Source: a virus | Taxonomy: Monodnaviria > Loebvirae > Hofneiviricota > Faserviricetes > Tubulavirales > Inoviridae | Virus record (IMG/VR): IMGVR_UViG_2565956711_000001 | Length of the DNA stretch: 12,715 nt | Strand: one strand, 5' to 3' | In this document: one piece after another, positions 1 through 12,715 of the stretch | Layout: every line of letters starts with the position of its first letter | How positions within the stretch are numbered: position 1 is the stretch's first letter | Notes under the pieces: generated by a model | The model's input: only the letters and a program-made list of their open reading frames with translations | The model's database searches: none | Told to the model about the DNA's origin: nothing | Translations under genes and position numbers: made by a program

Positions 1-297
1 TCACCATTCCTCACGCCTTGCCGGTGAATCAAACTCCTTTTCTACAAAATTTGCAGGGTTTGTATAAGTTGAAAGCGGTGCAGAACTGAGCGAAATCTCC
101 ACCCCTAAAATATTTAACACTTTGTATAGACGCTCAAAACTTGCTTTTGAAGGATTTGACTCAAGGCGAGCATAAGTCTGCTGGGTTATACCCAACATGG
201 CAGATAATTCTCTTTGAGTTAATCCTTTTGATTTACGAAAACCAATTAGAAGTGGACGTAACTGGCTAAGAAGTCTAACGGGAAAAATAGTATCCAT
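1..297 (-). CDS. XRE-family HTH protein, HipB-like antitoxin (98 aa); cognate HipA-like kinase expected immediately beyond the left window edge
   Basis: Complete ORF with ATG at 295-297 and stop at 1-3. The HTH core GLTQRELSAMLGITQQTYARLESNPSKASFERLYKVLNILGVEISL aligns by eye with E. coli HipB (GWTQSELAKKIGIKQATISNFENNPDNTTLTTFFKILQSLELSMTL). The disordered tail ends in EW, as HipB does. No obvious SD. Confidence 0.7.
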   Translation of the reverse strand: MDTIFPVRLLSQLRPLLIGFRKSKGLTQRELSAMLGITQQTYARLESNPSKASFERLYKVLNILGVEISLSSAPLSTYTNPANFVEKEFDSPARREEW

Positions 298-348
298 AAG
301 TAGGTGGCCATGTCGATTACTTCATAATAAATTCACTCCTCGTAAGAA

Positions 349-391
349 ACAGCCTGTAAGGTGTCTTATTACTTTACAGCTTACAAGGTGT
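349..391. promoter_or_regulatory. Imperfect direct repeat pair upstream of the HipB-like gene (candidate operator)
   Basis: ACAGCCTGTAAGGTGT (349-364) and ACAGCTTACAAGGTGT (376-391) match at 13/16 positions, 27 bp apart. The second copy contains the small palindrome CTTAC-N5-GTAAG. They lie 50-95 bp upstream of the ATG at 297. Confidence 0.3.
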
Positions 392-413
392 AAGGGTGAA
401 CTCGTTGTATTAA

Positions 414-608
414 CTAATACTGCTCAAATTTTAAAGGTTGCATCTCGCGCTGGCTGGGATTATATTTATTAAGGACTAGCATATAGTGGTGTACGCTGTT
501 ATCCTCTTTGTAATGAGGCTTATCAGTGTGTGAAGGGAGAGGGCGGACTCTGCTTTGCCCTCTCTCTTTCATGGACTTATTTAACTTTAAATGTTTTTTA
601 AAAGTCAT
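414..608 (-). CDS. Hypothetical small basic protein (64 aa), possibly translationally coupled to the upstream gene
   Basis: Its ATG overlaps the stop of the 605-1165 ORF in an ATGA arrangement. The sequence is K/R/H-rich with no recognisable motif, and such an ORF could arise by chance in AT-rich DNA. Confidence 0.3.
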   Translation of the reverse strand: MTFKKHLKLNKSMKERGQSRVRPLPSHTDKPHYKEDNSVHHYMLVLNKYNPSQREMQPLKFEQY

Positions 609-1165
609 TGCCTTATTGCAATGGTTTTATTAAAAATCCCAATCAATGTGTTTATTTTTTCATTTATCTTAATTTGCTTTTTCTCTTGCTCGAGAGAAAG
701 TTTTCTGAATTCATTTTCCCTGCTCGGCACGGCAATTATCAACTCTTCATAAATCTCCTTTGCTCCTGATACTTTTTCCAACTCGCTGCTGTATTTTTCG
801 ATAAGAGTTCTTATTTGAATATTTACATTTCTGTATTCATGACTGGTAGCACTTAAAACAAGTTGACTGGAATTTTTTTTGGGTGCCTCAATTAACTCTA
901 CGCTTTTCTTTACGACATTGAATTCAGATGTGACTGAGTATACATATTGATACGCGCCTGATTTTCTGACTTTACTCAATAATCCTTTTCTAACTAAACA
1001 CTGAATTTGGTTATAAGCAAAAGCTTTTGCCTTAAAATAACTTTTCGGAAGTGAAAATCGCTCGATAAGAATTTGAGCCACATCGTTACTGGTGAAGTTA
1101 TCTTTAGCAATATAGATTATTGCGGAAAATATGTACGACTCAGCGTTGGATACTCGACTATTCAT
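605..1165 (-). CDS. Hypothetical protein (186 aa): predicted N-terminal winged-helix DNA-binding domain plus C-terminal coiled coil
   Basis: The ORF is clearly AT-rich by eye. NQIQCLVRKGLLSKVRKSGAYQYVYSVT resembles a recognition helix followed by a beta-hairpin wing. The C-terminal half is heptad-like and E/K-rich (EKYSSELEKVSGAKEIYEEL...LSLEQEKKQIKINEKINTL). I cannot name a family. Confidence 0.65.
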   Translation of the reverse strand: MNSRVSNAESYIFSAIIYIAKDNFTSNDVAQILIERFSLPKSYFKAKAFAYNQIQCLVRKGLLSKVRKSGAYQYVYSVTSEFNVVKKSVELIEAPKKNSSQLVLSATSHEYRNVNIQIRTLIEKYSSELEKVSGAKEIYEELIIAVPSRENEFRKLSLEQEKKQIKINEKINTLIGIFNKTIAIRQ

Positions 1166-1186
1166 ATGACTAAAACAAGGCAGTTA

Positions 1187-1237
1187 ACTTAGGATTGCTA
1201 AGTATACAACAATGGCAGATACTTAGACAATCTAAGC
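1187..1237. promoter_or_regulatory. Twin palindromic operator-like sites in the divergent intergenic region
   Basis: ACTTAG-gattg-CTAAGT at 1187-1203 is a perfect 6+5+6 palindrome. ACTTAG-acaat-CTAAGc at 1221-1237 repeats it. Centres are 34 bp apart, between the divergently transcribed 605-1165 (-) and 1263-1595 (+) genes. Confidence 0.45.
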
Positions 1238-1262
1238 ATTCGAGGCCAATGAAGATGAATCA

Positions 1263-1595
1263 GTGTCTGAAAAAAATCCGATACCAGAAAGACTTAAGGA
1301 AGCGAGAAGCAGGGCGGGTTTATCACAGCGCTCATTGGGCCTCCTTGTTGGGTTTGATCCCGCTTCGGCTAGCAGTCGTATGAATCATTATGAGAAAGGG
1401 CGCCATGTCCCCGATATTGATACGCTTCGACGGATGGCGGCAGAGTTAAACGTGCCGTTGAACTACTTTTTTTGTGATGATCAGACCACAGCTGAACTTG
1501 CATTACTCATATCCCGGATGACAGAGGAAGAGCGAAGTAATCTTATCGAAGCACTCAAAAGGCATCCAGGCGAAAAGCATGCTGACAAAAAATGA
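1263..1595 (+). CDS. XRE-family helix-turn-helix transcriptional regulator (110 aa)
   Basis: GTG start at 1263. An in-frame stop at 1233-1235 excludes upstream starts, and later ATGs would truncate the HTH. The motif RLKEARSRAGLSQRSLGLLVGFDPASASSRMNHYEKGRHVPDIDTLRRMAAELNVPLNYFF is a typical Cro/C1-type HTH. This is the only convincing plus-strand gene in the window. Confidence 0.8.
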   Translation: MSEKNPIPERLKEARSRAGLSQRSLGLLVGFDPASASSRMNHYEKGRHVPDIDTLRRMAAELNVPLNYFFCDDQTTAELALLISRMTEEERSNLIEALKRHPGEKHADKK

Positions 1596-1756
1596 TATTA
1601 CATATAAAGCGACTGAACTTTTTGAAGGTAACGAAAGTGTAGCATTACACTGATGCAATGAACCAAGCAGGACATTACAGTGGGAGACGCCCTCTCAGAT
1701 AACAAACTCAAAAGAGGGAGCCATAAATATATGTTTATCAATACAACCAGCATTCT

Positions 1757-1780
1757 GCCGACAACCGGGAAGCTGTCGGC
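1757..1780. terminator. Weak hairpin between the convergent HTH and ginD-like genes
   Basis: GCCGACA (1757-1763) and TGTCGGC (1774-1780) form a 7-bp stem with a 10-nt loop. No clear U-tract follows on either strand. Confidence 0.2.
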
Positions 1781-1799
1781 TAAATCTTCCATGTCAGAA

Positions 1800-2237
1800 T
1801 TATGACGACTTATGTAGTTCCCGAATCATATGGTTGGCCAACAGGCTTTCCACCGGTATAACCGAATTGATTTTTACCGCTTTGACAATTTCTATCAACG
1901 AAAGGGTATTTTGCGCTAATTGGTCTCGCAATTCACTTACTTCAGCCTGCAACTGCTGGTTTCTGGCCAGTAAAGCCTGACGGGTTTTGCGGTTGACGTA
2001 TTGCTGTTTTTCTTTTGGGCGTAGATTCAATGGGCCAAGTTGCTGGTCAACATAGGCAGCAATTAGGCGTTTACGCTCTAGGCTGCTCAGCGTACTTAAA
2101 CCACCGTTAACGATACCTTTTGCCTTGAGCCTAATATGCAGGGCCTTGGCGGAAATAGGGGACTTGTCAAAGCCTTCAACCAGCATCAGTTGTAATTCGT
2201 GCTCAATCAGTGTGTTCAGTTCCTTGCCGCGCATCAA
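1800..2237 (-). CDS. Small coiled-coil accessory protein, GinD-like (145 aa), fourth gene of the recombinase operon
   Basis: The track start is TTG at 2235-2237. An ATG at 2232-2234 shares one base with the ginC-like TGA stop (TGATG), and GGAG lies 8 nt upstream of it. The C-terminal half is coiled-coil-like (RKTRQALLARNQQLQAEVSELRDQLAQNTLSLIEIV). Position and size match the small fourth gene of GInt gin operons. Confidence 0.75.
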   Translation of the reverse strand: MMRGKELNTLIEHELQLMLVEGFDKSPISAKALHIRLKAKGIVNGGLSTLSSLERKRLIAAYVDQQLGPLNLRPKEKQQYVNRKTRQALLARNQQLQAEVSELRDQLAQNTLSLIEIVKAVKINSVIPVESLLANHMIRELHKSS

Positions 2238-4600
2238 TCATTCTCCTGCATCAATTGTTGGTATTCAAGTGCAAAAAGCTGGGCCAGTGTACGGACTTTG
2301 CCCTCGGTGATTACTCCACCAGACAACACACTCTCAGCAGCAACCAGTTGTTGAGTCTTGGCACGACGATGCCATTGTGCTTGTATTGCCTCGAGTTGCT
2401 GTAACCGTCGTTCGATGTCGGCCAGTCTGGTCTGGTAATCAGGCTGATGTTGAGTAAGTTGGGTCAACTTCGAATGTGCTTGCTGTAAAGCCTGTTTTTT
2501 GGCAATCAGATTTGGTAGCTCATCTATCCGGCCTGTCAGCGTGAAATGTTCACAAAAGGCAGCACTCTGGCATTTCAGTCGATAAGGACATCCCCAGAGG
2601 TTAACTTCCCGCATACAGGAGCCAAATTTCAGCGGATACAGCACGGCATGTCTTGCCACCATGTCAGAGGCTTGCTCTGGTCCTTCTGCGTCGCGGATTT
2701 CTTCAAAGGCGGCAGCAACATCTTCAAAGAGGCCGTTAGCAAATGACGCCTCGACAAACCTGGCTACATCATCCCGATCGTCAAAAGTATGCAGGTTGGC
2801 TTTGATGGTATTGTCCAAAGTCATGTGTTCCGTGACCGCCAGTTGGCCGGTCCGTTTGACGATATCCAGTGGCGTAGCAATGGAGGACGAAGAGGGCGAG
2901 ACAGTTAGTGCTGTCGAAATCGGCTGCAAGGGCACCAACGAGGCGGCTTTTCGCCGTTCTGCAAGCGCCAGATGTTGATAATGCTGATTCTGCGTGATGT
3001 CCACTCGACCCATCAACATTGCCTGTAAGTGGTCAGAGATATCCGCAATAGCAAGAAAGGTATTGATGTTGTGCCGGGGAATGTGGGTACGCATCCGCGT
3101 CGAGGTGCCATCCTCCTCCAGTAATTGATATTTGCTGAATACTGATCCATCAGGCTCAACGTTGCCTAAGAATTTATTCATAAGTGTGTTAGTGAAGGGT
3201 ATCGGTGTAGCCAGCAAAGCCAGTGTGCGCTTTAATGCCAGCGAACCCTTCTCGTGTAGAAATAGCAGATCCTCGTAGTTAACTTGGTAGCGTTTGCCAT
3301 TTTCCATCCAGGCGTGTGTACAGGGTTCGTTGGCATTCGCCAGACCAAATTCGGTCTTAATGTAATGATTGAGAGCAGTCTTGGAATAATAGATAGATTT
3401 GCTGTTTTTCGGGCCTGGTATTTCTTGAACGGGCAGCACACCTCTTTTGCTAAGGGCTTTGGATGTTTTGTCCCGTTGTCCTGCCCGGCCCCGAAAACTT
3501 GAGGTAGTTTGGGTGATGTACTTCACCACATCGTCCAGTTCGACTCGTTCACCGGGCATGTTGCTGATGGCCTGTGGCAGGTAATCAGCAAAAGATTTTG
3601 CCCGTAGATAGGTAAGATGGCTGCGTATTGGTGCGGTCAACATTTTAACGGTACTGAATATACTCTCGACCAGCGGTACTGCCAGCGGTTCTACCCAATG
3701 CGTTCGCTCCCCAGCACCTTTGACACCAACATAACGGATACCAAGAAAATAATCGGGTAATCCCTTGTCCTGAAATCGTTTGCAGATTGCCGGATCATCA
3801 ATCTGGCGTTTAAACAGGGCATCCTGTCTGAGATTAAACGCTTCAATGGAGCGAAAGCCGGTAATAACCAATAACAACAGGCAATTTAACGCGATTTTCT
3901 CAGCATCACTTTCCACCCGCTGGATTAATGCAACTATGTTCAGAAATCCGCGAATGGTAATCAACGCATCTTCACCATCGGTAGTGGTATCAGACAGCTT
4001 GGCCTGCTGTTTCAGCGCCATGGTTTCCCGGGCTTTGCGGGTCAAGTTGGTTTTGTTGGTATACTTCACATCAGAGTTGTATTGCAGTTTAACCAACGTA
4101 AATGTGAAGTGATTGACCAATTTTTGAAGGCTAACGCACCGCCCTTTATAGTTAGCTGTATTGGGGTCACTAGGAGATGAAACGCTACTGAGAAGATCCA
4201 TCGCTCGTTGAATGACAACTGTGCTCAGGTAAGATGGATGGGTCTGTCCTGTCTCATAAAGCATCGCATGGTACCATCGTTTCAGAATCATCAAAGTTGC
4301 CTTTGCCACCGCTGGCGACATACTCCTATTTCCCTGTCGGTAAACCACTACCAGCATAGCTTTCATGAACTGACTATATTCTTTGTCGATGGGCAGATGT
4401 TCTACAATACCTTTGAATCTGTTCATCTCATCAAAACGTAATGTATTTCTGCCGTTCCCTCGCAACCATCCACTTCCCTGGTTACCACTTACCCAGATAT
4501 GATCATTCCATGTTTGGGCAAAATCAGCAGACAGGTGCTGTTCGAACCATTTTTTTTGCTCTTCAATAAAAGCCTGAAAATGCTCAAAGTGATTTTTCAT
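2234..4600 (-). CDS. Large tyrosine recombinase/integrase, GinC-like (788 aa)
   Basis: ATG at 4598-4600 with AGGTGA 7 nt upstream; it overlaps the upstream gene by 17 nt. Catalytic signature: TGFRSIEAFNL (Arg-I), HIPRHNINTF (H-x-x-R-H), LMGRVDITQNQHYQHL (Tyr nucleophile). The C-terminus carries a 4-Cys cluster followed by a Q-rich coiled coil. Confidence 0.9.
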   Translation of the reverse strand: MKNHFEHFQAFIEEQKKWFEQHLSADFAQTWNDHIWVSGNQGSGWLRGNGRNTLRFDEMNRFKGIVEHLPIDKEYSQFMKAMLVVVYRQGNRSMSPAVAKATLMILKRWYHAMLYETGQTHPSYLSTVVIQRAMDLLSSVSSPSDPNTANYKGRCVSLQKLVNHFTFTLVKLQYNSDVKYTNKTNLTRKARETMALKQQAKLSDTTTDGEDALITIRGFLNIVALIQRVESDAEKIALNCLLLLVITGFRSIEAFNLRQDALFKRQIDDPAICKRFQDKGLPDYFLGIRYVGVKGAGERTHWVEPLAVPLVESIFSTVKMLTAPIRSHLTYLRAKSFADYLPQAISNMPGERVELDDVVKYITQTTSSFRGRAGQRDKTSKALSKRGVLPVQEIPGPKNSKSIYYSKTALNHYIKTEFGLANANEPCTHAWMENGKRYQVNYEDLLFLHEKGSLALKRTLALLATPIPFTNTLMNKFLGNVEPDGSVFSKYQLLEEDGTSTRMRTHIPRHNINTFLAIADISDHLQAMLMGRVDITQNQHYQHLALAERRKAASLVPLQPISTALTVSPSSSSIATPLDIVKRTGQLAVTEHMTLDNTIKANLHTFDDRDDVARFVEASFANGLFEDVAAAFEEIRDAEGPEQASDMVARHAVLYPLKFGSCMREVNLWGCPYRLKCQSAAFCEHFTLTGRIDELPNLIAKKQALQQAHSKLTQLTQHQPDYQTRLADIERRLQQLEAIQAQWHRRAKTQQLVAAESVLSGGVITEGKVRTLAQLFALEYQQLMQEND

Positions 4601-6149
4601 TGGACTTCACCTGTTCCTGATGAAAACGGCAGCGGGCGATAACAGACTCAATTTCAAACTGTGTGGTTTCATGGATTAAAATGAGCGGATTTCGGGAATT
4701 ACCTACACCGTCTGAAATAGCGATTAGTTCATCGACTTCTTTTTTGACGCATTCAAGTAGAGCCTGATGTTCACCATCCGTAAAAGGGCGATAATACAGA
4801 CAGCCGTAACAAGAACGCACTTCGCTGAAAGGGCATGTACTACTGTTCCTGGAGCAACCACCAATTTTATCATGCAACTCGTCACCAACGAGTCCCACCA
4901 CTGGATGGCCTTTCCAATGTGCTGAGTCGACCAGTTCCCCAGTGAGCATCATAGCCACCATATTTTGCCAAACGGGATTCGACCCAAGCGCTTTAGCACG
5001 GATCAAGGCCAACGCGGGAGTTGCCATAATGTAGTATTTAGCTACGGCAAGAGAGGTGTGCCCCAGTACATGTGCTATCTCTTCAGCGCTAGCACCTTGC
5101 ATCGCCAAAGAGTGCCCAACATTGTGGCGTAAATCAGTGGGTGTAATTGTGGGCAATGCAGCTTCGCCACATGCTACGGCGGCTTGATATTCAGGAGGAC
5201 AGAAATTTAGGATTGCCTGATTAATTGCCTGAGACACATAATGCGGAGCTGAAACGCTGAAATCGAATAGTTTATCTTCGGGGTTTTTCTTATATCTCAC
5301 GGTATAGTTCATAATTAACTCCCCAATTTCTGGGGGGATCGCCAGAAATAACCGCTCTGTCGTCACTCGTCTTTGTTTAGCATATGGTAAAAAAACACTG
5401 TATCGAATCAGACCAGATTCCTGATTTCGTGTATCGATACGAACATCTTTGACCGCCAGCCTAGCGAGTTGTACTGGGCGTGCACCCGTTACATAAGCCA
5501 ACCCAAGGATAGCTGCATTGCGCACTTCGCTGTGACTGAAACTTTTGCCATCGCGTAACAACGAAGCCATTTCAAACAGTCCATTGCAAATCATGTTTTT
5601 TTCAAGAGGGTCAAGAATATTATCGATTTCTTGGTAACCCCCCCAATGTTCGAGATACGGTCGAGGGACGAACTCAAGATCATCGTAATCTTCAAGATTG
5701 AAACCTGGGAATGTTTCAGCACAAAGTATTTTTAATCCGAATAACACGGAATAAAAAGTAGCATTATCAATATCCTCTTTTTCGATAAATAATCGGAGCG
5801 TACTAAGCGAAAACCCACCATGTTCTCGACAATATGAAATGATATTCCTCCAATCAAGGTGCAACGCTGGAAGTTTGGTTGGAAATCTCGTCGATGCATA
5901 TTTGAAACAGATATACTTGTTTAATTTATTTGAGATATAATCTTGATTGAAAACAAGATATCGCCGACTGCCTGAATAATCGAAAGTCCATTTATTTCCT
6001 TTGTTAACAATATATTTATCATCAAACTCCATTGCCGTTTTTAGATAAATTCGATCAGGAATATCGAGTTCAAAGATAGCCTTAGCTAAATCAGGAGGGT
6101 AAACTGAGTTCCCTTCGTCAGATTTTAATGCATTATCAAATGATGTCAT
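4584..6149 (-). CDS. Tyrosine recombinase/integrase, GinB-like (521 aa)
   Basis: ATG at 6147-6149 overlaps the upstream gene by 14 nt. Catalytic signature: TGARPVQLARL (Arg-I), DLRHNVGHSL (R-H box), LGHTSLAVAKYY (His-II and Tyr). A C-terminal 4-Cys cluster is present. Confidence 0.9.
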   Translation of the reverse strand: MTSFDNALKSDEGNSVYPPDLAKAIFELDIPDRIYLKTAMEFDDKYIVNKGNKWTFDYSGSRRYLVFNQDYISNKLNKYICFKYASTRFPTKLPALHLDWRNIISYCREHGGFSLSTLRLFIEKEDIDNATFYSVLFGLKILCAETFPGFNLEDYDDLEFVPRPYLEHWGGYQEIDNILDPLEKNMICNGLFEMASLLRDGKSFSHSEVRNAAILGLAYVTGARPVQLARLAVKDVRIDTRNQESGLIRYSVFLPYAKQRRVTTERLFLAIPPEIGELIMNYTVRYKKNPEDKLFDFSVSAPHYVSQAINQAILNFCPPEYQAAVACGEAALPTITPTDLRHNVGHSLAMQGASAEEIAHVLGHTSLAVAKYYIMATPALALIRAKALGSNPVWQNMVAMMLTGELVDSAHWKGHPVVGLVGDELHDKIGGCSRNSSTCPFSEVRSCYGCLYYRPFTDGEHQALLECVKKEVDELIAISDGVGNSRNPLILIHETTQFEIESVIARCRFHQEQVKSNEKSL

Positions 6150-7530
6150 CGTTATATCTATCCATTATAGTATCTAACGTATTATGTAGCGCTGCATTGT
6201 CTTGAATAATTCGTTGGACATTGGCAGCATTAGCCTGCTCAGACAGGAAACGTTTTGCATATAGATCAGGCATTTGACTTGTCGGACTCCATCCCCCCAT
6301 CAGTCGTAGTTCATCTTTAGCTTCTTCCATTATCCCTGAGAGGGAAGGGACTTCAGCAATAAAGTGTGTTTTATTTTGCTGGCTTTTCAAATATTTTAAA
6401 TGCCATATTTTTTGCAATGTCAAAAAGGCCCAAGTATGTCGGGTTGTATGCGGAGTCAATCGTTGCAACGAGTCAGAGTACAACGGTGATTTGTACTCTG
6501 GATATTGGTTAGTGAAGACCTGATCTATTTTCGAAAAAATAGAATGAACTGATGTGTAGGACAAAGGCTTCGCTGACTGTTGACTCGATGTAAAGATGAA
6601 ATCGTGTTTATCAGTTTTTGGTCGAAGCTTTGCTATATAAATGCTTAAAAAAATATAATCCTGCTTATCGAGCTCCAACACACGATTAGCCCATGCATTT
6701 TTGAGAGATGGCGCATTCTTTCTTGGTTCGTATGCCTCGTCGACAGTTGTCACAATCAAACTAAACTTATCACCTTTTAAATTAGGTTTAATTGAGCTGC
6801 ACTCTAACAACAATAGCTCACCTGTTCGTAAACCATAATTTAACAACAGACGAATAATCAAAAAATTGCGGAACTGAAGATGCCCGGAAGGGAAAGGATT
6901 TAGCGGGTTATGCTTTTGGGCAGAAGAGGGGGTTATTATTCCATACAGGCTGAGCACCATTGCCCCAGACAAACTCTGAAATCCTTGGCTGCTGTGACTA
7001 TGTTGCGAAAATTTGTTTGATGTAAGCGTTCGATAATTCTCCCGGCAAAGCTGTAAACGGGTGTGTAAACGCGAAGCCAAAAGTGATAATGCTTTGGGAG
7101 AGTCATCCCGGTATGCAGGTGATATGTAGGTGTTAATCAAAAAAGAAATGAAATGGATCACAGCACGAACTCTAACTGTATGAGTTAAGCTATTGGCTTT
7201 TGTGACTCTCGTTAAAGACAACACATTTGACTGGACGTTGTGGCCATTTTCTAGATACATCCAAAATGCGGGCATTTCACCGACAGCAATGTCTGGATTG
7301 TGGTCAGATGAATAGAAGCTGTAGCAAAACGAGACACCATACTTTTGCCTCCAGAATTCGTAAAAAAACTTCACAGATTGAAGTGAAGCTGACTGTGTGG
7401 ACAATGAGCGGAAAGCCAAATGGTCAATATGGTACCTAAGGGGATACAGCAACGGCAGAGAGGTTTCCAAGTCCATCAGGATCCATCGCCTTTTACGGCC
7501 TGAGATAACCAACTGCTTTAGTGAATACAC
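6136..7530 (-). CDS. Tyrosine recombinase/integrase, GinA-like (464 aa), first gene of the operon
   Basis: GTG start at 7528-7530 with GAGG 8 nt upstream; an alternative ATG lies at 7474-7476. Catalytic signature: YGLRTGELLLL (Arg-I), HTTRHTWAFL (H-x-x-R-H), GGWSPTSQMPDLYAKR (Trp in the His-II position, then Tyr). Confidence 0.9.
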   Translation of the reverse strand: MYSLKQLVISGRKRRWILMDLETSLPLLYPLRYHIDHLAFRSLSTQSASLQSVKFFYEFWRQKYGVSFCYSFYSSDHNPDIAVGEMPAFWMYLENGHNVQSNVLSLTRVTKANSLTHTVRVRAVIHFISFLINTYISPAYRDDSPKALSLLASRLHTRLQLCRENYRTLTSNKFSQHSHSSQGFQSLSGAMVLSLYGIITPSSAQKHNPLNPFPSGHLQFRNFLIIRLLLNYGLRTGELLLLECSSIKPNLKGDKFSLIVTTVDEAYEPRKNAPSLKNAWANRVLELDKQDYIFLSIYIAKLRPKTDKHDFIFTSSQQSAKPLSYTSVHSIFSKIDQVFTNQYPEYKSPLYSDSLQRLTPHTTRHTWAFLTLQKIWHLKYLKSQQNKTHFIAEVPSLSGIMEEAKDELRLMGGWSPTSQMPDLYAKRFLSEQANAANVQRIIQDNAALHNTLDTIMDRYNDDII

Positions 7531-7673
7531 AATATTTACCTCAAAATTATCATGGATATGAAGAGAATGTACTCTGTACCTAATGCAAGAAACGAGAGGG
7601 AGATCAGAAATCCTAACGTATTGATTTATCAGTTAGTGGGAGTGTCATATGAACTTATTTACCACAGTAGGTG

Positions 7674-7701
7674 ATTTAACATAATATACATTATGCGCAC
7701 C
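7674..7701 (-). other. dif: dif, the chromosome dimer resolution site for XerC/XerD
   Basis: The plus strand reads ATTTAACATAATATACATTATGCGCACC. Its reverse complement is GGTGCGCATAA-TGTATA-TTATGTTAAAT, a 28/28 match to the canonical E. coli dif. The XerD arm faces left (island side) and the XerC arm faces right (prophage side). Confidence 0.95.
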
Positions 7702-7851
7702 AGTGCGCAGATACGCCAGAAATCAGCCTGTAACCATCACCACGGCATTAAACGGTCATCGCTGTTACGTTCTTTCGTCTTCGACCGTCAGCCATCCGTA
7801 TCGCTTCTGAATACGCCGGAATGAAAAACAGGCTTTGCAGTGCCGGGAATT

Positions 7852-7871
7852 ATTATGGCTGACGCCATAAT
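7852..7871. repeat. Perfect 8-bp stem hairpin with TGAC loop
   Basis: ATTATGGC-TGAC-GCCATAAT; all 8 pairs were checked base by base. Confidence 0.8.
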
Positions 7872-7922
7872 GCTGTTTATGTCCTCGCTTCGCTGCGGGG
7901 CTTCCGGCGCTAAGCGCCTCCC

Positions 7923-7953
7923 ATGCCTGACGGCATAAAAACCGGATATGCCG
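7923..7953. repeat. Two overlapping, mutually exclusive hairpins
   Basis: ATGCC-TGAC-GGCAT (7923-7936) and CGGCATA-aaaaccgga-TATGCCG (7931-7953) share the GGCAT segment. The first is a compensated variant of the 7852-7871 hairpin, with the same TGAC loop. Confidence 0.7.
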
Positions 7954-7986
7954 CCACGTCACCGCATGATACGTCCGTCGCCACCA

Positions 7987-9249
7987 TCACCGCGCGCGCT
8001 CCTCGTGGGAACTCGGTGCGTGCGCGGCGCTGGCGCGCCTGACTTTTTTCGCCTGTAACACGACAAGAATATCCGTCTTGTTCTTCTCGTCAGATGAACT
8101 GGTGAGCCAGCCTTTTGGCAGAAAGCTGAACCCGGTATCGGCGTTTGTGACCTTCGATTCAGCCAGGCCACCCAGCAGAATAATATCCCCGTCAGCCGCT
8201 GATACCTCCGTATTCACCTCGCGCTTAATCAGCGTCGGGCTGTTATTCACGCCCGTATCCGTCTTCGCAAAGCTGGAAAGCTGCTGCTTAATCACAAGGT
8301 CAATATTGTCAGTCCGGATTTGCGGTTTCACGTCGAGGATAACGCCACTAGAGCGATATTCAATCGACTGGATCGGCCTGTTGTCGGCGTAGCTCACCTG
8401 ACCCAGCACCGGAACCTCGTTACCGACTGAAAACGTGGCAGATGCGCCATCCTTCACCCTGAGCCGCGGGGAACTGACGACATGAAAACGACTGTCCGTC
8501 CTGAAAAGCTCATACAGCGCATCAAGAGAGCCTGTATTCACCCGGATAAAGTTATCAAAACCGCCAGACGCGCCAATCTGTATATTCAGCTTGCCGGAAA
8601 GCAGCTTCGCCGCCAGTGCCAGCCCGGAACCGTTACGCTCACTGGTCTGAACCTCAAACACGTAAGCTGCGACAATCACTTCTTCAGAGGCAGTATCAAT
8701 CAGCGGTAAAAGCGTCTGCAACCGCTTAATCTCTGACTTCCGGCCATAATAAACCAGCACATCCCCGGTACGGTTCATAAAGTCCGATGCCGTACCCGCT
8801 ACGGCCGCTTCTGGCGATATCTGCCCGGACGGTAACGAGTTACGCTGACTGTTAAACTGCCCGGTAAACTGTCCGGCCAGAATGTCAGACAGATACGCCA
8901 CGGAACGGAAGCGAGGCCGATAAACAAAGGTCTCCTGCGGCGGCACATACACTTTCGGCGTGAACGGCGCCACGTAGTCAATGCCCTGTTTGTTATAAAT
9001 CGCAATGTTCATATTGCCGAGATAGCGCTTAATAAATGCCCGTTCATCGATATCCGGCGTGATACGGAACGTCACCACCTTATCGGATTTGGCAAGCTCC
9101 GGGTCAAGCATAAACGGCTTATCGAACACCTGAACGTAAATCATGTTCAGCGCCTGCGGCAGCGGAACAGCGTTGAGCTCCAGACTGACGCCCTTCGCCA
9201 TAACCAGCCCCGGAACCAGTAAAAAAAGTAAACCTGTTATCAGCTTCAT
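7987..9249 (-). CDS. Filamentous-phage pIV-like outer-membrane secretin (420 aa)
   Basis: Signal peptide MKLITGLLFLLVPGLVMA. The secretin C-domain motif GDIILLGGLAESKVTNADTGFSFLPKGW...TDILVVLQAKKV parallels f1 pIV (GQTLLLGGLTDYKNTSQDSGVPFLSKIP...LYVLVKATIV). The ATG overlaps the pI-like stop (ATGA). Confidence 0.9.
   Translation of the reverse strand: MKLITGLLFLLVPGLVMAKGVSLELNAVPLPQALNMIYVQVFDKPFMLDPELAKSDKVVTFRITPDIDERAFIKRYLGNMNIAIYNKQGIDYVAPFTPKVYVPPQETFVYRPRFRSVAYLSDILAGQFTGQFNSQRNSLPSGQISPEAAVAGTASDFMNRTGDVLVYYGRKSEIKRLQTLLPLIDTASEEVIVAAYVFEVQTSERNGSGLALAAKLLSGKLNIQIGASGGFDNFIRVNTGSLDALYELFRTDSRFHVVSSPRLRVKDGASATFSVGNEVPVLGQVSYADNRPIQSIEYRSSGVILDVKPQIRTDNIDLVIKQQLSSFAKTDTGVNNSPTLIKREVNTEVSAADGDIILLGGLAESKVTNADTGFSFLPKGWLTSSSDEKNKTDILVVLQAKKVRRASAAHAPSSHEERAR
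7990..8049 (+). terminator. GC-rich double hairpin ending in a T6 run (terminator-like on the plus strand), overlapping the last ~18 codons of the secretin gene
   Basis: CCGCGCGCGC (7990-7999) pairs with GCGTGCGCGG (8018-8027): 10 bp with one G-T. GGCGC-TGGC-GCGCC (8026-8039) follows, then TGACTTTTTT (8040-8049). The T-run follows the stems only on the plus strand, antisense to the phage genes. Confidence 0.4.
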
Positions 9250-10280
9250 CGTATCGCCCCTGAATAAACCGTCACCGTTTCGCCGTCGATTTCACCCGTC
9301 ATCATCATGCCGTCAAAGCTGAACTGCGAAGCCGGCTCTATACGCAATCTGCCTGACGTGTCTGCAACAACAACCCATGCCTGACCATCGCGTTTAAGCC
9401 GTCCGGCAAGTCGCCATTTGTCCGACACAACGGGCTTAGCTGGCGCGGCAGGTACAAAAGACGCTGAATTATTTGCGGCGGGTAAATCTTTAGTCTGCTG
9501 TTCAGGCTCTGAATTACCGTTTGACGTGAAAAACCAGAACAGATAAAAAATGGCAATTACCGCCAGAATCAGTAACCCGACAGCTTTAAACCACAACATT
9601 TTAGAACTGAAAATATTCTGACGTTTATCGGTGACAAGTTCCCTTCCCTGCCCGTTCTCATGGGATTTATATAGGGGGAATATCGCCTTGTCATATTTAT
9701 TCTGATAACTGTTCGTCAGATTCGACTTAAACAGTTTGATACCCGTAAATACGTCCACACGGTAGCGGTTATGCAGACCCAGCGCCACATGCTTACTCAT
9801 GCGATACGTTGTTTCCACCCGGTCTTTAATGAATCGCGGAAGGTTGGCAACAGACTGATTCATAACCACTAAATCACAGGTTACGCCCGTTTTTTCATCG
9901 GCAAAATGGCGATGTTCTGCAATGAAAGAGCGATGATTTGCAGGAATCCCTTTATCGTTCTCCCATATGCGCCATGCTTCATCAATACAGATTAAATCCC
10001 CCGGACGGCAGAACGTATCATCCGCAATGCCTGAATCCGTTTTGTAGGGAAAGAAATTATCGTTCTGAACGTCTTCATTCTGAACAAGTAAAATTTCACC
10101 AAGTGATTCCCTGTCTGCCTTTTTAATATCAACGCAGTAATCATAAATACTTTGCGTGGCAAGGCCGTAAATATTACTGACAATGCGACGCCCAGCGATA
10201 CAGGCGGGAATAATGACGCTTGCCACCACTTCGTAAGATTTACCGCTTCCGGGAATGCCCACATACGCAGAAATAGCCAT
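9246..10280 (-). CDS. Zot-like / pI-like phage assembly NTPase (344 aa)
   Basis: N-terminal Walker A GIPGSGKS, followed by DEAW (Walker-B-like). A single TM segment (LWFKAVGLLILAVIAIFYLFWFF) precedes a periplasmic C-terminal domain. Position between pVI-like and pIV-like genes is as in Ff and CTXphi. Confidence 0.9.
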   Translation of the reverse strand: MAISAYVGIPGSGKSYEVVASVIIPACIAGRRIVSNIYGLATQSIYDYCVDIKKADRESLGEILLVQNEDVQNDNFFPYKTDSGIADDTFCRPGDLICIDEAWRIWENDKGIPANHRSFIAEHRHFADEKTGVTCDLVVMNQSVANLPRFIKDRVETTYRMSKHVALGLHNRYRVDVFTGIKLFKSNLTNSYQNKYDKAIFPLYKSHENGQGRELVTDKRQNIFSSKMLWFKAVGLLILAVIAIFYLFWFFTSNGNSEPEQQTKDLPAANNSASFVPAAPAKPVVSDKWRLAGRLKRDGQAWVVVADTSGRLRIEPASQFSFDGMMMTGEIDGETVTVYSGAIR

Positions 10281-10283
10281 AAA

Positions 10284-10571
10284 TTAACCAATCAAAGGAA
10301 TGCGACGAATAATAAAGCGCGTTAACAATGCTGAAAACATCAGTTTAATCCCTTCCGTGACCATAAACAGATTCACGAAATACCATACGCTATCAGGTAG
10401 TGAGGAAAACAACCCGGCAATATCAACAGATTTTGGCAACAGTGACGCCAGAACCGGAACAAACGCCTGTACGACAAAGTACAGGCCAAAAAACAGAATA
10501 AATTTGACAACCACCGTTCGCAGCACAAAACCCAGCGCCACGTTAAAGGCTGAAACCAGAATACCAAACAT
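10284..10571 (-). CDS. pVI/Ace-like minor coat (virion cap) membrane protein (95 aa)
   Basis: Very hydrophobic. The C-terminus SALLTRFIIRRIPLIG resembles the CTXphi Ace tail (ALMTRFALRALNL). GGAGG lies 5 nt upstream of the ATG. The stop lies 3 nt before the pI-like ATG. Confidence 0.7.
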   Translation of the reverse strand: MFGILVSAFNVALGFVLRTVVVKFILFFGLYFVVQAFVPVLASLLPKSVDIAGLFSSLPDSVWYFVNLFMVTEGIKLMFSALLTRFIIRRIPLIG

Positions 10572-10581
10572 AACGCCTCCG

Positions 10582-12465
10582 TCACGCAGTCAGAATGATA
10601 CGCAGCGAAATAATGCCCCAGATAAGCAGGAATACCGCTTTCAGAAGTGGCCTGATTTTTTCCAGAAGCTCGCAGTGAGAATCAATGGAATATTTATTGT
10701 CCCAGAGTTCGAACGACCATACCGGACACTGAACATCCTTCGATGAAATACTCAGGTTTTTAATGTCCGGCATTAATTCTGTAATTGGCTTGAGAATTTC
10801 CTCACCTGTAGGCGGTTTTTCAAGTTCCGGCGATTTAATGCCGGGGTCTTCGCCTAAATCAACAGAAGTATCGGTATCTGTGCCTGTACCAGGGTGTACA
10901 CCTGTATCCGTTCCCGCACCGGGTCTGGCATTAACCCACGACTGAGGAACGACAACCGGACTATAAAGCAAGCCCTTATCAAGTTTTACGCCAACAGCAT
11001 TAGCCGCAGCCGTCAGTTCAGCCGCCGTAAAAGGTTTATCAAGCGGTATCCCCTGATATCCTTCCTGAACAACAGTCTGACCTGCAAGGCCATTAATAAG
11101 ATTAACCAGCGCAGCCGGGTTTAACTGTTCCTCCGGCTTGAAATCTATATTATCAATAACCTCGCCATTAATTACCTGAGGTAAATTTGATGTATCAAAT
11201 TCTGTATTAAAAAATATCTGGTCTTTAACATCCTGAACATCATTCGTCGTTTTATACACGGCCTTCTCAGGGTGGCAAATACTTTTCCACTGCGTTTTGG
11301 GATTATCAGCCGTACTGCCCGGCGCAGGTACTTTCTCGCTTTTACATAAATCCCATGAGTTTTCAAGCGTAACCGTTGTTGTTCCAACAGATAAAACCAC
11401 AGTTACAATCGATGAATATCCACCAAAATAAGGATTCGGCTTTTCATACTGAAAGTCTTTAACGGAAACCGAATAAACCTTAAAATTTCTTGGCATCCTG
11501 ATATGTAAGTTATTGTCGTCAGACGCCTCATGATAAGTCACATTGGAATGAGAATAACCATTAATCGACTTATAAAGCGCAATCATTACCGGATTATCAC
11601 TGACAAGTACAGCATCGCCCTTTGCATCCCTGATATCAGTCGAATAAGGATATTTAGTACCCTTAACTGACACACGATATACATCATTCGGTAATGGCTG
11701 GCTTATCGGCGGTGGTGCATCAATATTGTAATAGGTTGGCGCAATCTGAACAGGTTTAACCTGATGATTATAAGGGCTTATCGAGTCCTGAATATTCTTC
11801 GCAGAAAAGCCAGTAGCATCAGAGGGCAAATAAACAGCAACAGGGCTTTTAGGTGAAGGTGCAACAGAAGAAGTAACAGTAGCGCCATTGGACAAATTAA
11901 GTAAATAAGTTCCATCATCCTGTTTTATTCCACTTGTAATATATTCAACAGCTTTTGCGCCCTGCTTTAAAGCAAGGTCAGCAACGGAAATAACACCCGC
12001 AGCCTGCCCCAGCAATCCCCATGTTGTCTGTCCGGCAGCCATCATATTACTGCCAAAACTTGAAATACCCGTGGATATCGAATCGTCAATTGTATGCTTC
12101 GCAAGGCCATAAGCAGCCGCGAAAACTGACGTTCCGGTGCAAAGCTGAGGATTACCCACTTTCTCGCCACACATGCGGATTGAATCAAAAACGTCAGGAC
12201 GTTCGCGTATAACCTCCGCAGCGACAGCGATACCCGCGCCCATACCGAGAGAACTGGCACCCGTTGCGAATACACGCCCCGCAGATTGAGAAACAACCTG
12301 AGCTTCACGGGTTTCAACCATTTGCTGAATTACACGTCCAAATCCGTCTGCTGTTACTGCATCAGCATGTACACCGGATGAAACCAGTAAAGACAATATA
12401 GTAATACCTAACTTTCCAGACCCTGAATGACCGCCCAGGCGCATAAAAGCCCCCATAAAAAACAC
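10582..12465 (-). CDS. pIII-like adsorption / minor coat protein (up to 627 aa; the true start is probably the ATG at 12442-12444)
   Basis: Signal peptide MRLGGHSGSGKLGITILSLLVSSGVHA-DA from the third in-frame start. The linker is G/T/D-rich (GAGTDTGVHPGTGTDTDTSVDLGEDPG). The C-terminal domain KYSIDSHCELLEKIRPLLKAVFLLIWGIISLRIILTA parallels M13 pIII (YEFSIDCDKINLFRGVFAFLLYVATFMYVF). Position after the major coat gene and terminator matches Ff. Confidence 0.8.
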   Translation of the reverse strand: MFFMGAFMRLGGHSGSGKLGITILSLLVSSGVHADAVTADGFGRVIQQMVETREAQVVSQSAGRVFATGASSLGMGAGIAVAAEVIRERPDVFDSIRMCGEKVGNPQLCTGTSVFAAAYGLAKHTIDDSISTGISSFGSNMMAAGQTTWGLLGQAAGVISVADLALKQGAKAVEYITSGIKQDDGTYLLNLSNGATVTSSVAPSPKSPVAVYLPSDATGFSAKNIQDSISPYNHQVKPVQIAPTYYNIDAPPPISQPLPNDVYRVSVKGTKYPYSTDIRDAKGDAVLVSDNPVMIALYKSINGYSHSNVTYHEASDDNNLHIRMPRNFKVYSVSVKDFQYEKPNPYFGGYSSIVTVVLSVGTTTVTLENSWDLCKSEKVPAPGSTADNPKTQWKSICHPEKAVYKTTNDVQDVKDQIFFNTEFDTSNLPQVINGEVIDNIDFKPEEQLNPAALVNLINGLAGQTVVQEGYQGIPLDKPFTAAELTAAANAVGVKLDKGLLYSPVVVPQSWVNARPGAGTDTGVHPGTGTDTDTSVDLGEDPGIKSPELEKPPTGEEILKPITELMPDIKNLSISSKDVQCPVWSFELWDNKYSIDSHCELLEKIRPLLKAVFLLIWGIISLRIILTA

Positions 12466-12489
12466 ATAAAATCAAAAAGATATTGAGCC

Positions 12490-12518
12490 ATAAATATAAA
12501 GGGGCTGTTACGCCCCTT
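12490..12518 (-). terminator. Rho-independent terminator after the major coat protein gene
   Basis: The minus strand reads AAGGGGC-GTAACA-GCCCCTT followed by TATATTTAT: a 7-bp stem with a T-rich tail. It lies 12 nt downstream of the coat gene stop, analogous to the strong terminator after gene VIII in Ff phages. Confidence 0.75.
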
Positions 12519-12529
12519 ACCTTTATGAA

Positions 12530-12715
12530 TTAAGCGCCACGAACCATACGCAAAATCCAGCGGACACCCGCAGAACCTGCATACAGAACAATAAGAGAAC
12601 CCGCTACCGCCATAATTCCGGTCAGAACGGAACCGAAATTAACGCTGTTAGTCAGTGGCGTAAGGTCAATACCTTTACCACCAACAACATCACCTTCAGC
12701 AGCAAATACGGCAGG
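12530..12715 (-). CDS. pVIII-like major coat protein (C-terminal 61 codons plus stop; N-terminus beyond the window)
   Basis: My own translation of the minus strand gives ...PAVFA/AEGDVVGGKGIDLTPLTNSVNFGSVLTGIMAVAGSLIVLYAGSAGVRWILRMVRGA*. It has a signal-peptidase-like AxA site, an acidic mature N-terminus (AEGD, as in M13), a hydrophobic core and a basic C-terminus. The ORF track omits it because the ORF is open at the window edge. Confidence 0.8.
   Translation of the reverse strand, partial: PAVFAAEGDVVGGKGIDLTPLTNSVNFGSVLTGIMAVAGSLIVLYAGSAGVRWILRMVRGA

Follow-up and report, generated by a model that had tools for sequence, protein, structure and literature searches.

An island of the GInt type that very probably uses the XerD-binding arm of dif and plasmid Xer sites for attachment

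The window analyzed here, the whole stretch of 12,715 nucleotides, contains the recombinase end of an island, an intact dif site, and a filamentous prophage. The genes in the island part, which belongs to the first of three island lineages distinguished below, are the following:

1-297, minus strand: HTH regulator of the XRE type, conserved backbone gene (PF01381, E 3.6e-15; 95% identical between lineages 1 and 2)
605-1165, minus strand: backbone ORF of 186 aa with no significant family match (97% identical between lineages 1 and 2)
1263-1595, plus strand: HTH regulator of 110 aa (NCBIfam phage_RstR, E 1.3e-9, 38.3 bits, below the cutoff of 80; 99% identical between the lineages)
1800-2237, minus strand: ginD-like gene, 145 aa, fourth gene of the operon, overlapping ginC (95% identical between the lineages)
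2234-4600, minus strand: ginC-like gene, 788 aa, tyrosine-recombinase fold, homolog of ECs_3510
4584-6149, minus strand: ginB-like tyrosine recombinase gene, 521 aa (PF00589, E 1.1e-10; box I GARP, box II LRH...GH...YY)
6136-7530, minus strand: ginA-like tyrosine recombinase gene, 464 aa, GTG start (PF00589)

As in the published GInts (Bardaji et al., 2017, PMC5385486), overlapping genes in the order ginA-ginB-ginC-ginD, here ORFs of 464, 521, 788, and 145 aa on one strand, are located at one end of the element and are followed by cargo and an AT-rich far end. GinA, GinB, and GinC are homologous to proteins of a catalogued GInt of E. coli Sakai, i.e., ECs_3512 (E 4e-15), ECs_3511 (E 2e-8), and ECs_3510 (BLASTP 9e-9; hhalign probability 97%, E 8.5e-11), respectively. 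ECs_3510 is the GinC ortholog in Idola et al., and ECs_3512, 3511, and 3510 are contained in Additional file 10 of that study (PMC10214605). GinD showed no similarity to Sakai GinD ECs_3509 (BLASTP E 2.1) and agrees with it in position and size alone; GInt families are mutually just 24-40% identical. The island differs from the published GInts in the larger size of GinC and in a GinD without sequence similarity.

Both GinA and GinB carry the catalytic residues; among relatives of GinA, R235 is nearly invariant and H361, R364, and Y424 are invariant. GinC had no match in Pfam, NCBIfam, or PDB sequence searches, and a profile-profile comparison with GinA was negative. When its AlphaFold model (mean pLDDT 75.6) was compared with the PDB by Foldseek, the 44 best matches were all tyrosine recombinases, at weak scores (best E 3.9e-3), and the invariant residues R250, H506, R509, H510, and Y541 form an R...HxxRH...Y pattern. 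In NCBI/RefSeq, the lineage-1 ginA gene starts 54 nt inside the GTG at 7530 and encodes 446 aa. We prefer the 464-aa protein, since its first 18 residues are kept in relatives and a spacing of 141-146 bp between ginA and the Xer site is kept in Enterobacterales.

Other multi-recombinase systems fit less well. [quoted passage not shown] SE and GInt proteins form separate clusters (Idola et al., PMC10214605). A gamma-mobile trio was not recognized, as GinB scored 17.5 bits against NCBIfam GmtY, for which the cutoff is 340.

Complete islands of the family could be delimited at 27.7, 22.1, 7.7, 18.2, and 33.8 kb, and no annotated transfer genes were seen in the element. The annotated cargo (L001, L063, L075, L078, and L083) consists largely of anti-phage defence genes, for example for type I restriction-modification, a pair of an ATP-dependent nuclease and a UvrD-like helicase, Hachiman HamA with its helicase, a nucleotidyltransferase/E1-like/JAB/exonuclease cluster, and Abi and SIR2 proteins; the island of plasmid pX14-3-NDM also carries mrk fimbriae genes.

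The intergenic region between ginA and the prophage contains the following features:

7531-7673: ginA-proximal terminal region of the island, missing from island-free E. coli and present beside unrelated Xer sites on plasmids
7614-7627: conserved motif TAACGTATTGATTT, kept across genera
7648-7656: conserved motif TATGAACTT, kept across genera
7657-7673: lineage-specific inner segment within the ginA-proximal terminal region
7674-7680: crossover core ATTTAAC (read as GTTAAAT on the dif strand), which makes up the outer 7 bp of the XerD arm and recurs at the far island end
7674-7701, minus strand: intact dif (XerD arm 7674-7684, central region 7685-7690, XerC arm 7691-7701)

dif is among the most conserved non-coding sites of bacteria and is needed for chromosome segregation. 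The consensus GGTGCGCATAATGTATATTATGTTAAAT is matched at 28 of 28 positions, and none of 200 dinucleotide shuffles contained a match even when up to three mismatches were allowed. The XerD arm, ATTTAACATAA on the plus strand, faces leftward, i.e., toward the island, and exactly 143 non-coding bases separate it from the GTG of ginA, as had been noticed in the first-pass annotation. A second dif-like site with up to three mismatches, be it the other end of the phage or a copy borne by the island, is not present in the window. A promoter consensus scan of positions 7400-8000 gave three weak matches, none of them convincing for ginA. A weak sigma-70-like site on the plus strand (TTTACC-16-CATAAT, 9/12; 7658-7685) has a -10 hexamer composed of XerD arm and central region and would read outwards across dif; outward promoters have been described for Pseudomonas GInts.

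To locate the end of the island, which the first-pass annotation had assigned to the 143-bp gap, the region was compared with island-free E. coli. In most complete genomes the match is confined to 7672-7704, i.e., to dif and a few bases, and all of the 143 bp are therefore accessory DNA belonging to the island rather than a stretch that island-free chromosomes also possess. The boundary lies in dif itself. In E. coli EM18-18-42, the same island is found without the phage at the normal dif locus, between ydeT and hipA. Read from the XerC arm to the XerD arm, the empty site is ...TGTATA TTAT GTTAAAT CATGTCTGAG..., the ginA-side junction ...TTAT GTTAAAT CACCTACTGTGG..., and the far junction ...CACACAACATAA GTTAAAT CATGTCTGAG.... 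From this comparison of empty and occupied sites, the crossover is placed in GTTAAAT, the outer XerD arm (7674-7680). The direct repeat that had been suggested as a search target at the far end of the island thus exists; it is 7 bp long and the same at both ends, as expected for site-specific insertion with short direct repeats. In the occupied locus a complete dif is found at the ginA end, while the far end has only ATAAGTTAAAT, corresponding to 9 of the 11 positions of the XerD arm, and neither a central region nor a XerC arm.

Three diverged lineages of the island, with GinA proteins pairwise 52-60% identical, fill one and the same dif slot of E. coli, and about 7% of the complete E. coli genomes have at least part of one of them there. 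At the ginA end, GTTAAAT is followed by lineage-specific sequence in each of the three, whereas the far end reads ...CAACATAA GTTAAAT CATGTCTGAG, with ...TCAACATAA GTTAAAT being common to all. Element and target are identical over exactly 7 bp in lineage 2; in some lineages the identity extends to 9-12 bp, which we ascribe to chance similarity with the flank, and the limit of 7 bp derives from a handful of pairs of empty and occupied sites. The 17 bp beside the core vary with the GinA lineage, in contrast to the conserved far end. This covariation would fit a reading of the inner half-site on the ginA side by GinA and/or GinB, and shared ancestry explains it equally well.

The two ends of the island also differ in base composition and in their motifs. 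The distal 200 bp have an AT content of 67.5%, compared to 52.5-53.8% for the whole island. They contain three motifs of the TTCATGAA type, and the ginA end has one further copy, in inverted orientation, at a distance of 18 bp from the core. About 50 bp inward from the ginA end there is a second conserved motif, AAATCAATAnGTTA. Both kinds of motif are plausible candidates for arm-type protein-binding sites. Along the operon, the identity between lineages 1 and 2 (window 1-7530 versus L063:1836-9362) climbs from 56% for GinA over 66% for GinB and 88% for GinC to 95% for GinD and 95-99% for the downstream regulators, suggesting either an exchange of modules or faster divergence at the dif-proximal end.

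The proximity to dif had raised the question whether the target site of the family adjoins or overlaps dif or whether the dif region merely collects foreign DNA, and a survey of related gin operons had been proposed. A scan with an alignment of GinA relatives, covering one genome for each species, yielded 57 loci, 52 of them with usable upstream sequence. In about 40 of these 52, a Xer site with a perfect XerD arm is present upstream of ginA, in one orientation throughout. The hosts comprise Enterobacterales, Acinetobacter, Psychrobacter, Moraxella, Shewanella, and Rheinheimera, and the distance between Xer site and ginA is mostly 124-193 bp, with outliers at 82 and 271 bp. A GinA protein identical to that of the window is indexed in 5941 blocks of public assemblies, and each of the eight contigs retrieved (8/8) has dif at a gap of 143 bp. 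Over 27 distinct occupied sites, all 11 positions of the XerD arm are invariant, including GTTAAAT in 27/27, and the XerC arm and the central region vary. The roughly 50 occupied sites do not all represent independent events, since relatives share ancestry.

The variation of the XerC arm follows the host: Enterobacterales have GGTGCGCATAA, Acinetobacter has ATTTCGTATAA, and further variants occur in Psychrobacter, Moraxella, Shewanella, and Rheinheimera. Even with a 100% identical GinA, the XerC arm and the flank are different in Enterobacter wuhouensis. A contig labelled Chryseobacterium sp. 18061 (L019) combines an Enterobacterales-type dif (GGTGCGCGTAA TGTATA TTATGTTAAAT) with a lineage-2-like island and probably reflects contamination or mislabelling. 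The exceptions in the survey are of two kinds, namely very short contigs and about 10 Acinetobacter copies with a truncated ginA, which are joined to TTATGACAATT, matching the XerD arm at 8 of 11 positions, or to unrelated DNA. In these copies, several of which are on plasmids (L037, L043-L048, L052, L056, and L071), ginA stops after about 325 residues and the proximal end starts at the usual base, abutting TTATGACAATT instead of TTATGTTAAAT. They may represent insertions into secondary sites.

Plasmids are used as well. In PLSDB, 192 plasmids encode a relative of GinA, many of them large resistance plasmids, and eight of ten inspected copies have, directly adjoining their ginA end, a Xer site whose XerD arm is perfect. 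The same holds true for plasmid ET734 and for a remnant lacking ginA on pD2-tet(X4). The XerC arms of these plasmid sites are variable and their central regions are not dif-like (TCTATC, CAAAGA, TCATTG, GAAATT, CGTGTC, CGAGGA, and GATGGA). One element, defined by GinA proteins at least 98% identical, was found at the dif sites of E. coli and Enterobacter and at three plasmid xrs; its presence at several different sites indicates recent, repeated, and precise insertion.

A pair of plasmids shows a site before and after an insertion. In pD2-tet(X4), the xrs is followed by GTTAAAT and an old remnant of a lineage-1 end, and in pX14-3-NDM, the same xrs is followed by GTTAAAT, a 33.8-kb element of a distant lineage, GTTAAAT, and the same remnant. 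Similarly, a lineage-1 element of plasmid p4710 (L076:1644-19828) is inserted with the xrs on one side and the end of an older element on the other. The regenerated arm can therefore be used again, so that elements stack with the youngest nearest to the Xer site. These stacked plasmid arrays also indicate that the sequence beyond the XerD arm is irrelevant to targeting. Stacked or decayed elements were seen in p4710 (L076), in pX14-3-NDM (L078), and in the EM18 chromosome (L001:2437-3107), in which a further, truncated ginC'-ginD module is found deeper inside the island. On many large E. coli plasmids, among them tet(X4) and NDM plasmids (e.g., H70-H90; L003:10008-10123), all that is retained of lineage 1 is a ginA-proximal remnant of 116 or 51 bp, adjoining a Xer site or the far end of another island.

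Taken together, these sequence comparisons support the view that closeness to dif is a targeting rule of a widespread island family and not a coincidence, because the family appears to insert into the outer edge of dif or of look-alike plasmid sites and to rebuild it. Of the two possibilities raised initially, targeting is thus retained in its overlapping form, with a base-precise junction and a fixed orientation at more than 50 chromosomal and plasmid sites in several orders, and the homologous islands share the association with dif.

We consider it very probable that the island is a GInt-type integrative element that attaches to the XerD-binding arm in dif and in the Xer sites of plasmids. 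According to this model, the element would excise as a circle, in which the joined ends form attI: the far end ...TTCATGAAC-N14-CAACATAA, then GTTAAAT, then N17-AAGTTCATA... of the ginA end. The Gin recombinases would pair attI with a Xer site and swap strands within the GTTAAAT of the outermost XerD arm. Since attI and target share the same 7 bp, the ginA end would receive a complete dif again, and the XerC arm, the central region, and the TTAT of the rebuilt 28-bp site would be derived from the host. Since the far end has neither central region nor XerC arm, one functional dif would be kept and XerCD would be unable to delete the island. The orientation would be fixed, with gin transcription directed away from dif, and the regenerated arm could be hit again, so that newcomers would pile up between older elements and dif. 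A route between cells would be open to the element through the Xer sites of conjugative plasmids.

The junctions, the 7-bp repeat, the fixed spacing and orientation, the host-specific XerC arms, the use of plasmid sites, and the stacking are read from aligned DNA. Going beyond these, we infer that integration is independent of XerCD catalysis and most likely catalyzed by the Gin proteins, and the same step of reasoning applies to the exact cleavage positions and to the protein that reads the target. In Pseudomonas GInts, experiments have shown that ginABCD are required for integration and excision and that the cuts are staggered by 6 nt (PMC5385486), with which the favored model is consistent. 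Because the target DNA outside the XerD arm is not conserved, the target has no conventional two-sided core site. Recognition could occur by direct readout of the Xer site or by docking on bound XerD, both of which are possible.

The second of these modes, in which Gin proteins would dock on XerD within the XerD/XerC nucleoprotein complex and cut the outer edge of the arm, instead of or besides reading naked DNA, is a variant of the favored model and not an exclusive alternative. We regard it as possible, though on balance rather unlikely. It is in line with the Xer site being the sole conserved target DNA, the other flank being anything, even the end of another island, and with all occupied sites being full Xer sites and none a lone TTATGTTAAAT word. 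For the IS1202-family elements, which insert on the opposite side, it has likewise been argued that they do not read sequence alone (Siguier et al., bioRxiv 10.1101/2022.12.17.520857). However, the invariance of the XerD arm includes positions at which natural Xer sites tolerate changes, which points to a direct requirement for sequence or homology, and XerD bound to the arm would cover the proposed cleavage site.

Integration by the host XerCD recombinases, with the gin genes as passengers or accessory factors, would make the island comparable to integrative mobile elements exploiting Xer (IMEXs) such as CTXphi, TLCphi, VGJphi, and the gonococcal genetic island. These likewise use dif as docking site, keep a functional dif, and can stack, and a true XerCD-dependent phage is in fact located on the other side of the dif studied here. 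In contrast to the island with its three recombinase-family proteins, however, IMEXs encode no recombinase and recombine via XerCD in the central region, with dif-like sequences at both ends. In the island, the crossover falls into the outer XerD arm and not into the central region, in which XerC and XerD cleave, there is no Xer site at the far junction, the deduced attI is dif-like for 7-9 bp at most, and plasmid targets with unrelated central regions are used. These features make catalysis by XerCD unlikely, and so does the need for ginABCD in Pseudomonas GInts (PMC5385486); we rejected this explanation as very improbable. We also rejected two explanations that the junction data contradict and that retain practically no likelihood. 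The dif neighborhood is indeed rich in accessory elements (phage, IS1202-family elements, islands), but the terminus as a passive sink does not account for a junction that is the same to the base, in a constant orientation and at a constant spacing, in many genera and also on plasmids, which have no terminus; and although dif is always at the ginA end, as expected for a resolution site brought in by the island, XerC arm and central region are contiguous with the host flank and identical to those of island-free strains at this locus, they follow the host taxon and the plasmid, respectively, and there is one full site per insertion.

On the XerC side of dif, the window contains a prophage with the following features:

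7702-12715, minus strand: filamentous (inovirus) prophage, assigned by Pfam matches, cut off by the window end
7987-9249, minus strand: secretin gene (Pfam)
9246-10280, minus strand: Zot/pI gene (Pfam)
10284-10571, minus strand: DUF2523/pVI-like gene (Pfam)
10582-12465, minus strand: pIII-like gene, 627 aa

At the DNA level the prophage shows weak similarity to inoviruses. In E. coli G5 (L075:11001-22317), the same inovirus is present at dif as a tandem array of two or more copies, each about 7.7 kb long, and the junction between copies contains two inverted dif-like half sites, GCGCATAA-TGACG-TTATGCTAAAG and AACATAA-N10-ATTATGCGCACC, as in an attP of the CTX type. With Zot, secretin, DUF2523, and inverted dif-like half sites, the neighboring phage is a Xer-dependent inovirus of the CTX type. 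The juxtaposition of island, dif, and phage had been called unusual in the first-pass annotation, but it is not unique: it recurs in G5, which has a lineage-2 island on the XerD side, and at another locus (L082) with a different inovirus and IS1202-family elements. The lineage-1 island together with the same phage was not found among the complete E. coli genomes of the collection.

The island leaves dif intact after insertion. In three complete islands (L001 with L005, L063, and L064), the KOPS motif GGGNAGGG occurs nine times in permissive and never in non-permissive orientation, all pointing toward dif; the counts are 3:0 and 10:0 in the host flanks on the two sides, and 1:0 and 2:0 in the island and phage parts of the window. 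Since the counts are small and the islands share homologous DNA, this bias is no more than suggestive of selection against blocking FtsK. The cumulative GC skew of the window peaks at about 7250-7750, i.e., at dif.

Transposase genes or ends (..ATTGAGCC.CTACA..) of IS1202-family elements (ISNCY/ISKpn21 type) are located about 5 bp outside the XerC arm of island-bearing Xer sites on plasmids (L002, L003, L065, L067, L068, and L073), at further loci (L010-L012, L082, and L086), and at many Acinetobacter loci; in L082 and L086 the IS lies beside an Abi_C-type or SIR2 gene. That this family targets the XerC side has been published (PMC10132070; bioRxiv 10.1101/2022.12.17.520857). Like the islands, IS1202-family elements (ISAba32/ISAjo2/ISKpn21 subgroup) use chromosomal dif and plasmid xrs in fixed orientation, can stack, and occur at the very same sites. 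They differ in having a DDE-type transposase, in inserting 5-6 bp outside the XerC arm, and in a duplication of 5-6 bp, whereas the island relies on tyrosine recombinases and overlaps with the XerD arm. Since island, phage, and IS1202-family elements each use dif differently, dif is exploited in three positions by three mechanisms.

GInts themselves are already known, and what appears to be new is a GInt clade with dif/xrs as attachment site. [quoted passage not shown] In the open-access literature and bioRxiv we found no link between GInts and dif, which may have been described elsewhere, nor a relevant paper on multi-recombinase islands at dif or on a hipA/dif hotspot. The GInt and SE papers do not mention dif, and the IS1202 papers and a 2026 paper on Acinetobacter dif do not mention recombinase islands on the XerD side.

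We lean toward the broader view that a large clade of GInts, found at least in Enterobacterales, Moraxellales, and Alteromonadales and on many conjugative plasmids, adopted the XerD arm as target, cuts inside it, and rebuilds it, perhaps guided by XerD. This would be a third way of exploiting dif/xrs beside those of the IMEXs (central region, host XerCD) and of the IS1202-family elements (5 bp outside the XerC arm), and bound XerD may act as a targeting cofactor. It raises the question how foreign tyrosine recombinases act on a site normally occupied by XerD, without conserved DNA on the opposite side, and the interplay of Gin, XerCD, and FtsK/KOPS becomes directly testable. The system could also give a broad-host, programmable-free integration tool. 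For the elements, dif/xrs would be a safe target present across many bacterial groups, and plasmid Xer sites, with relatives on 192 PLSDB plasmids, would offer a path from the chromosome to conjugative plasmids. If true, this would explain how islands without annotated transfer genes move defence and resistance cargo between chromosomes and plasmids, and why defence cargo piles up beside dif.
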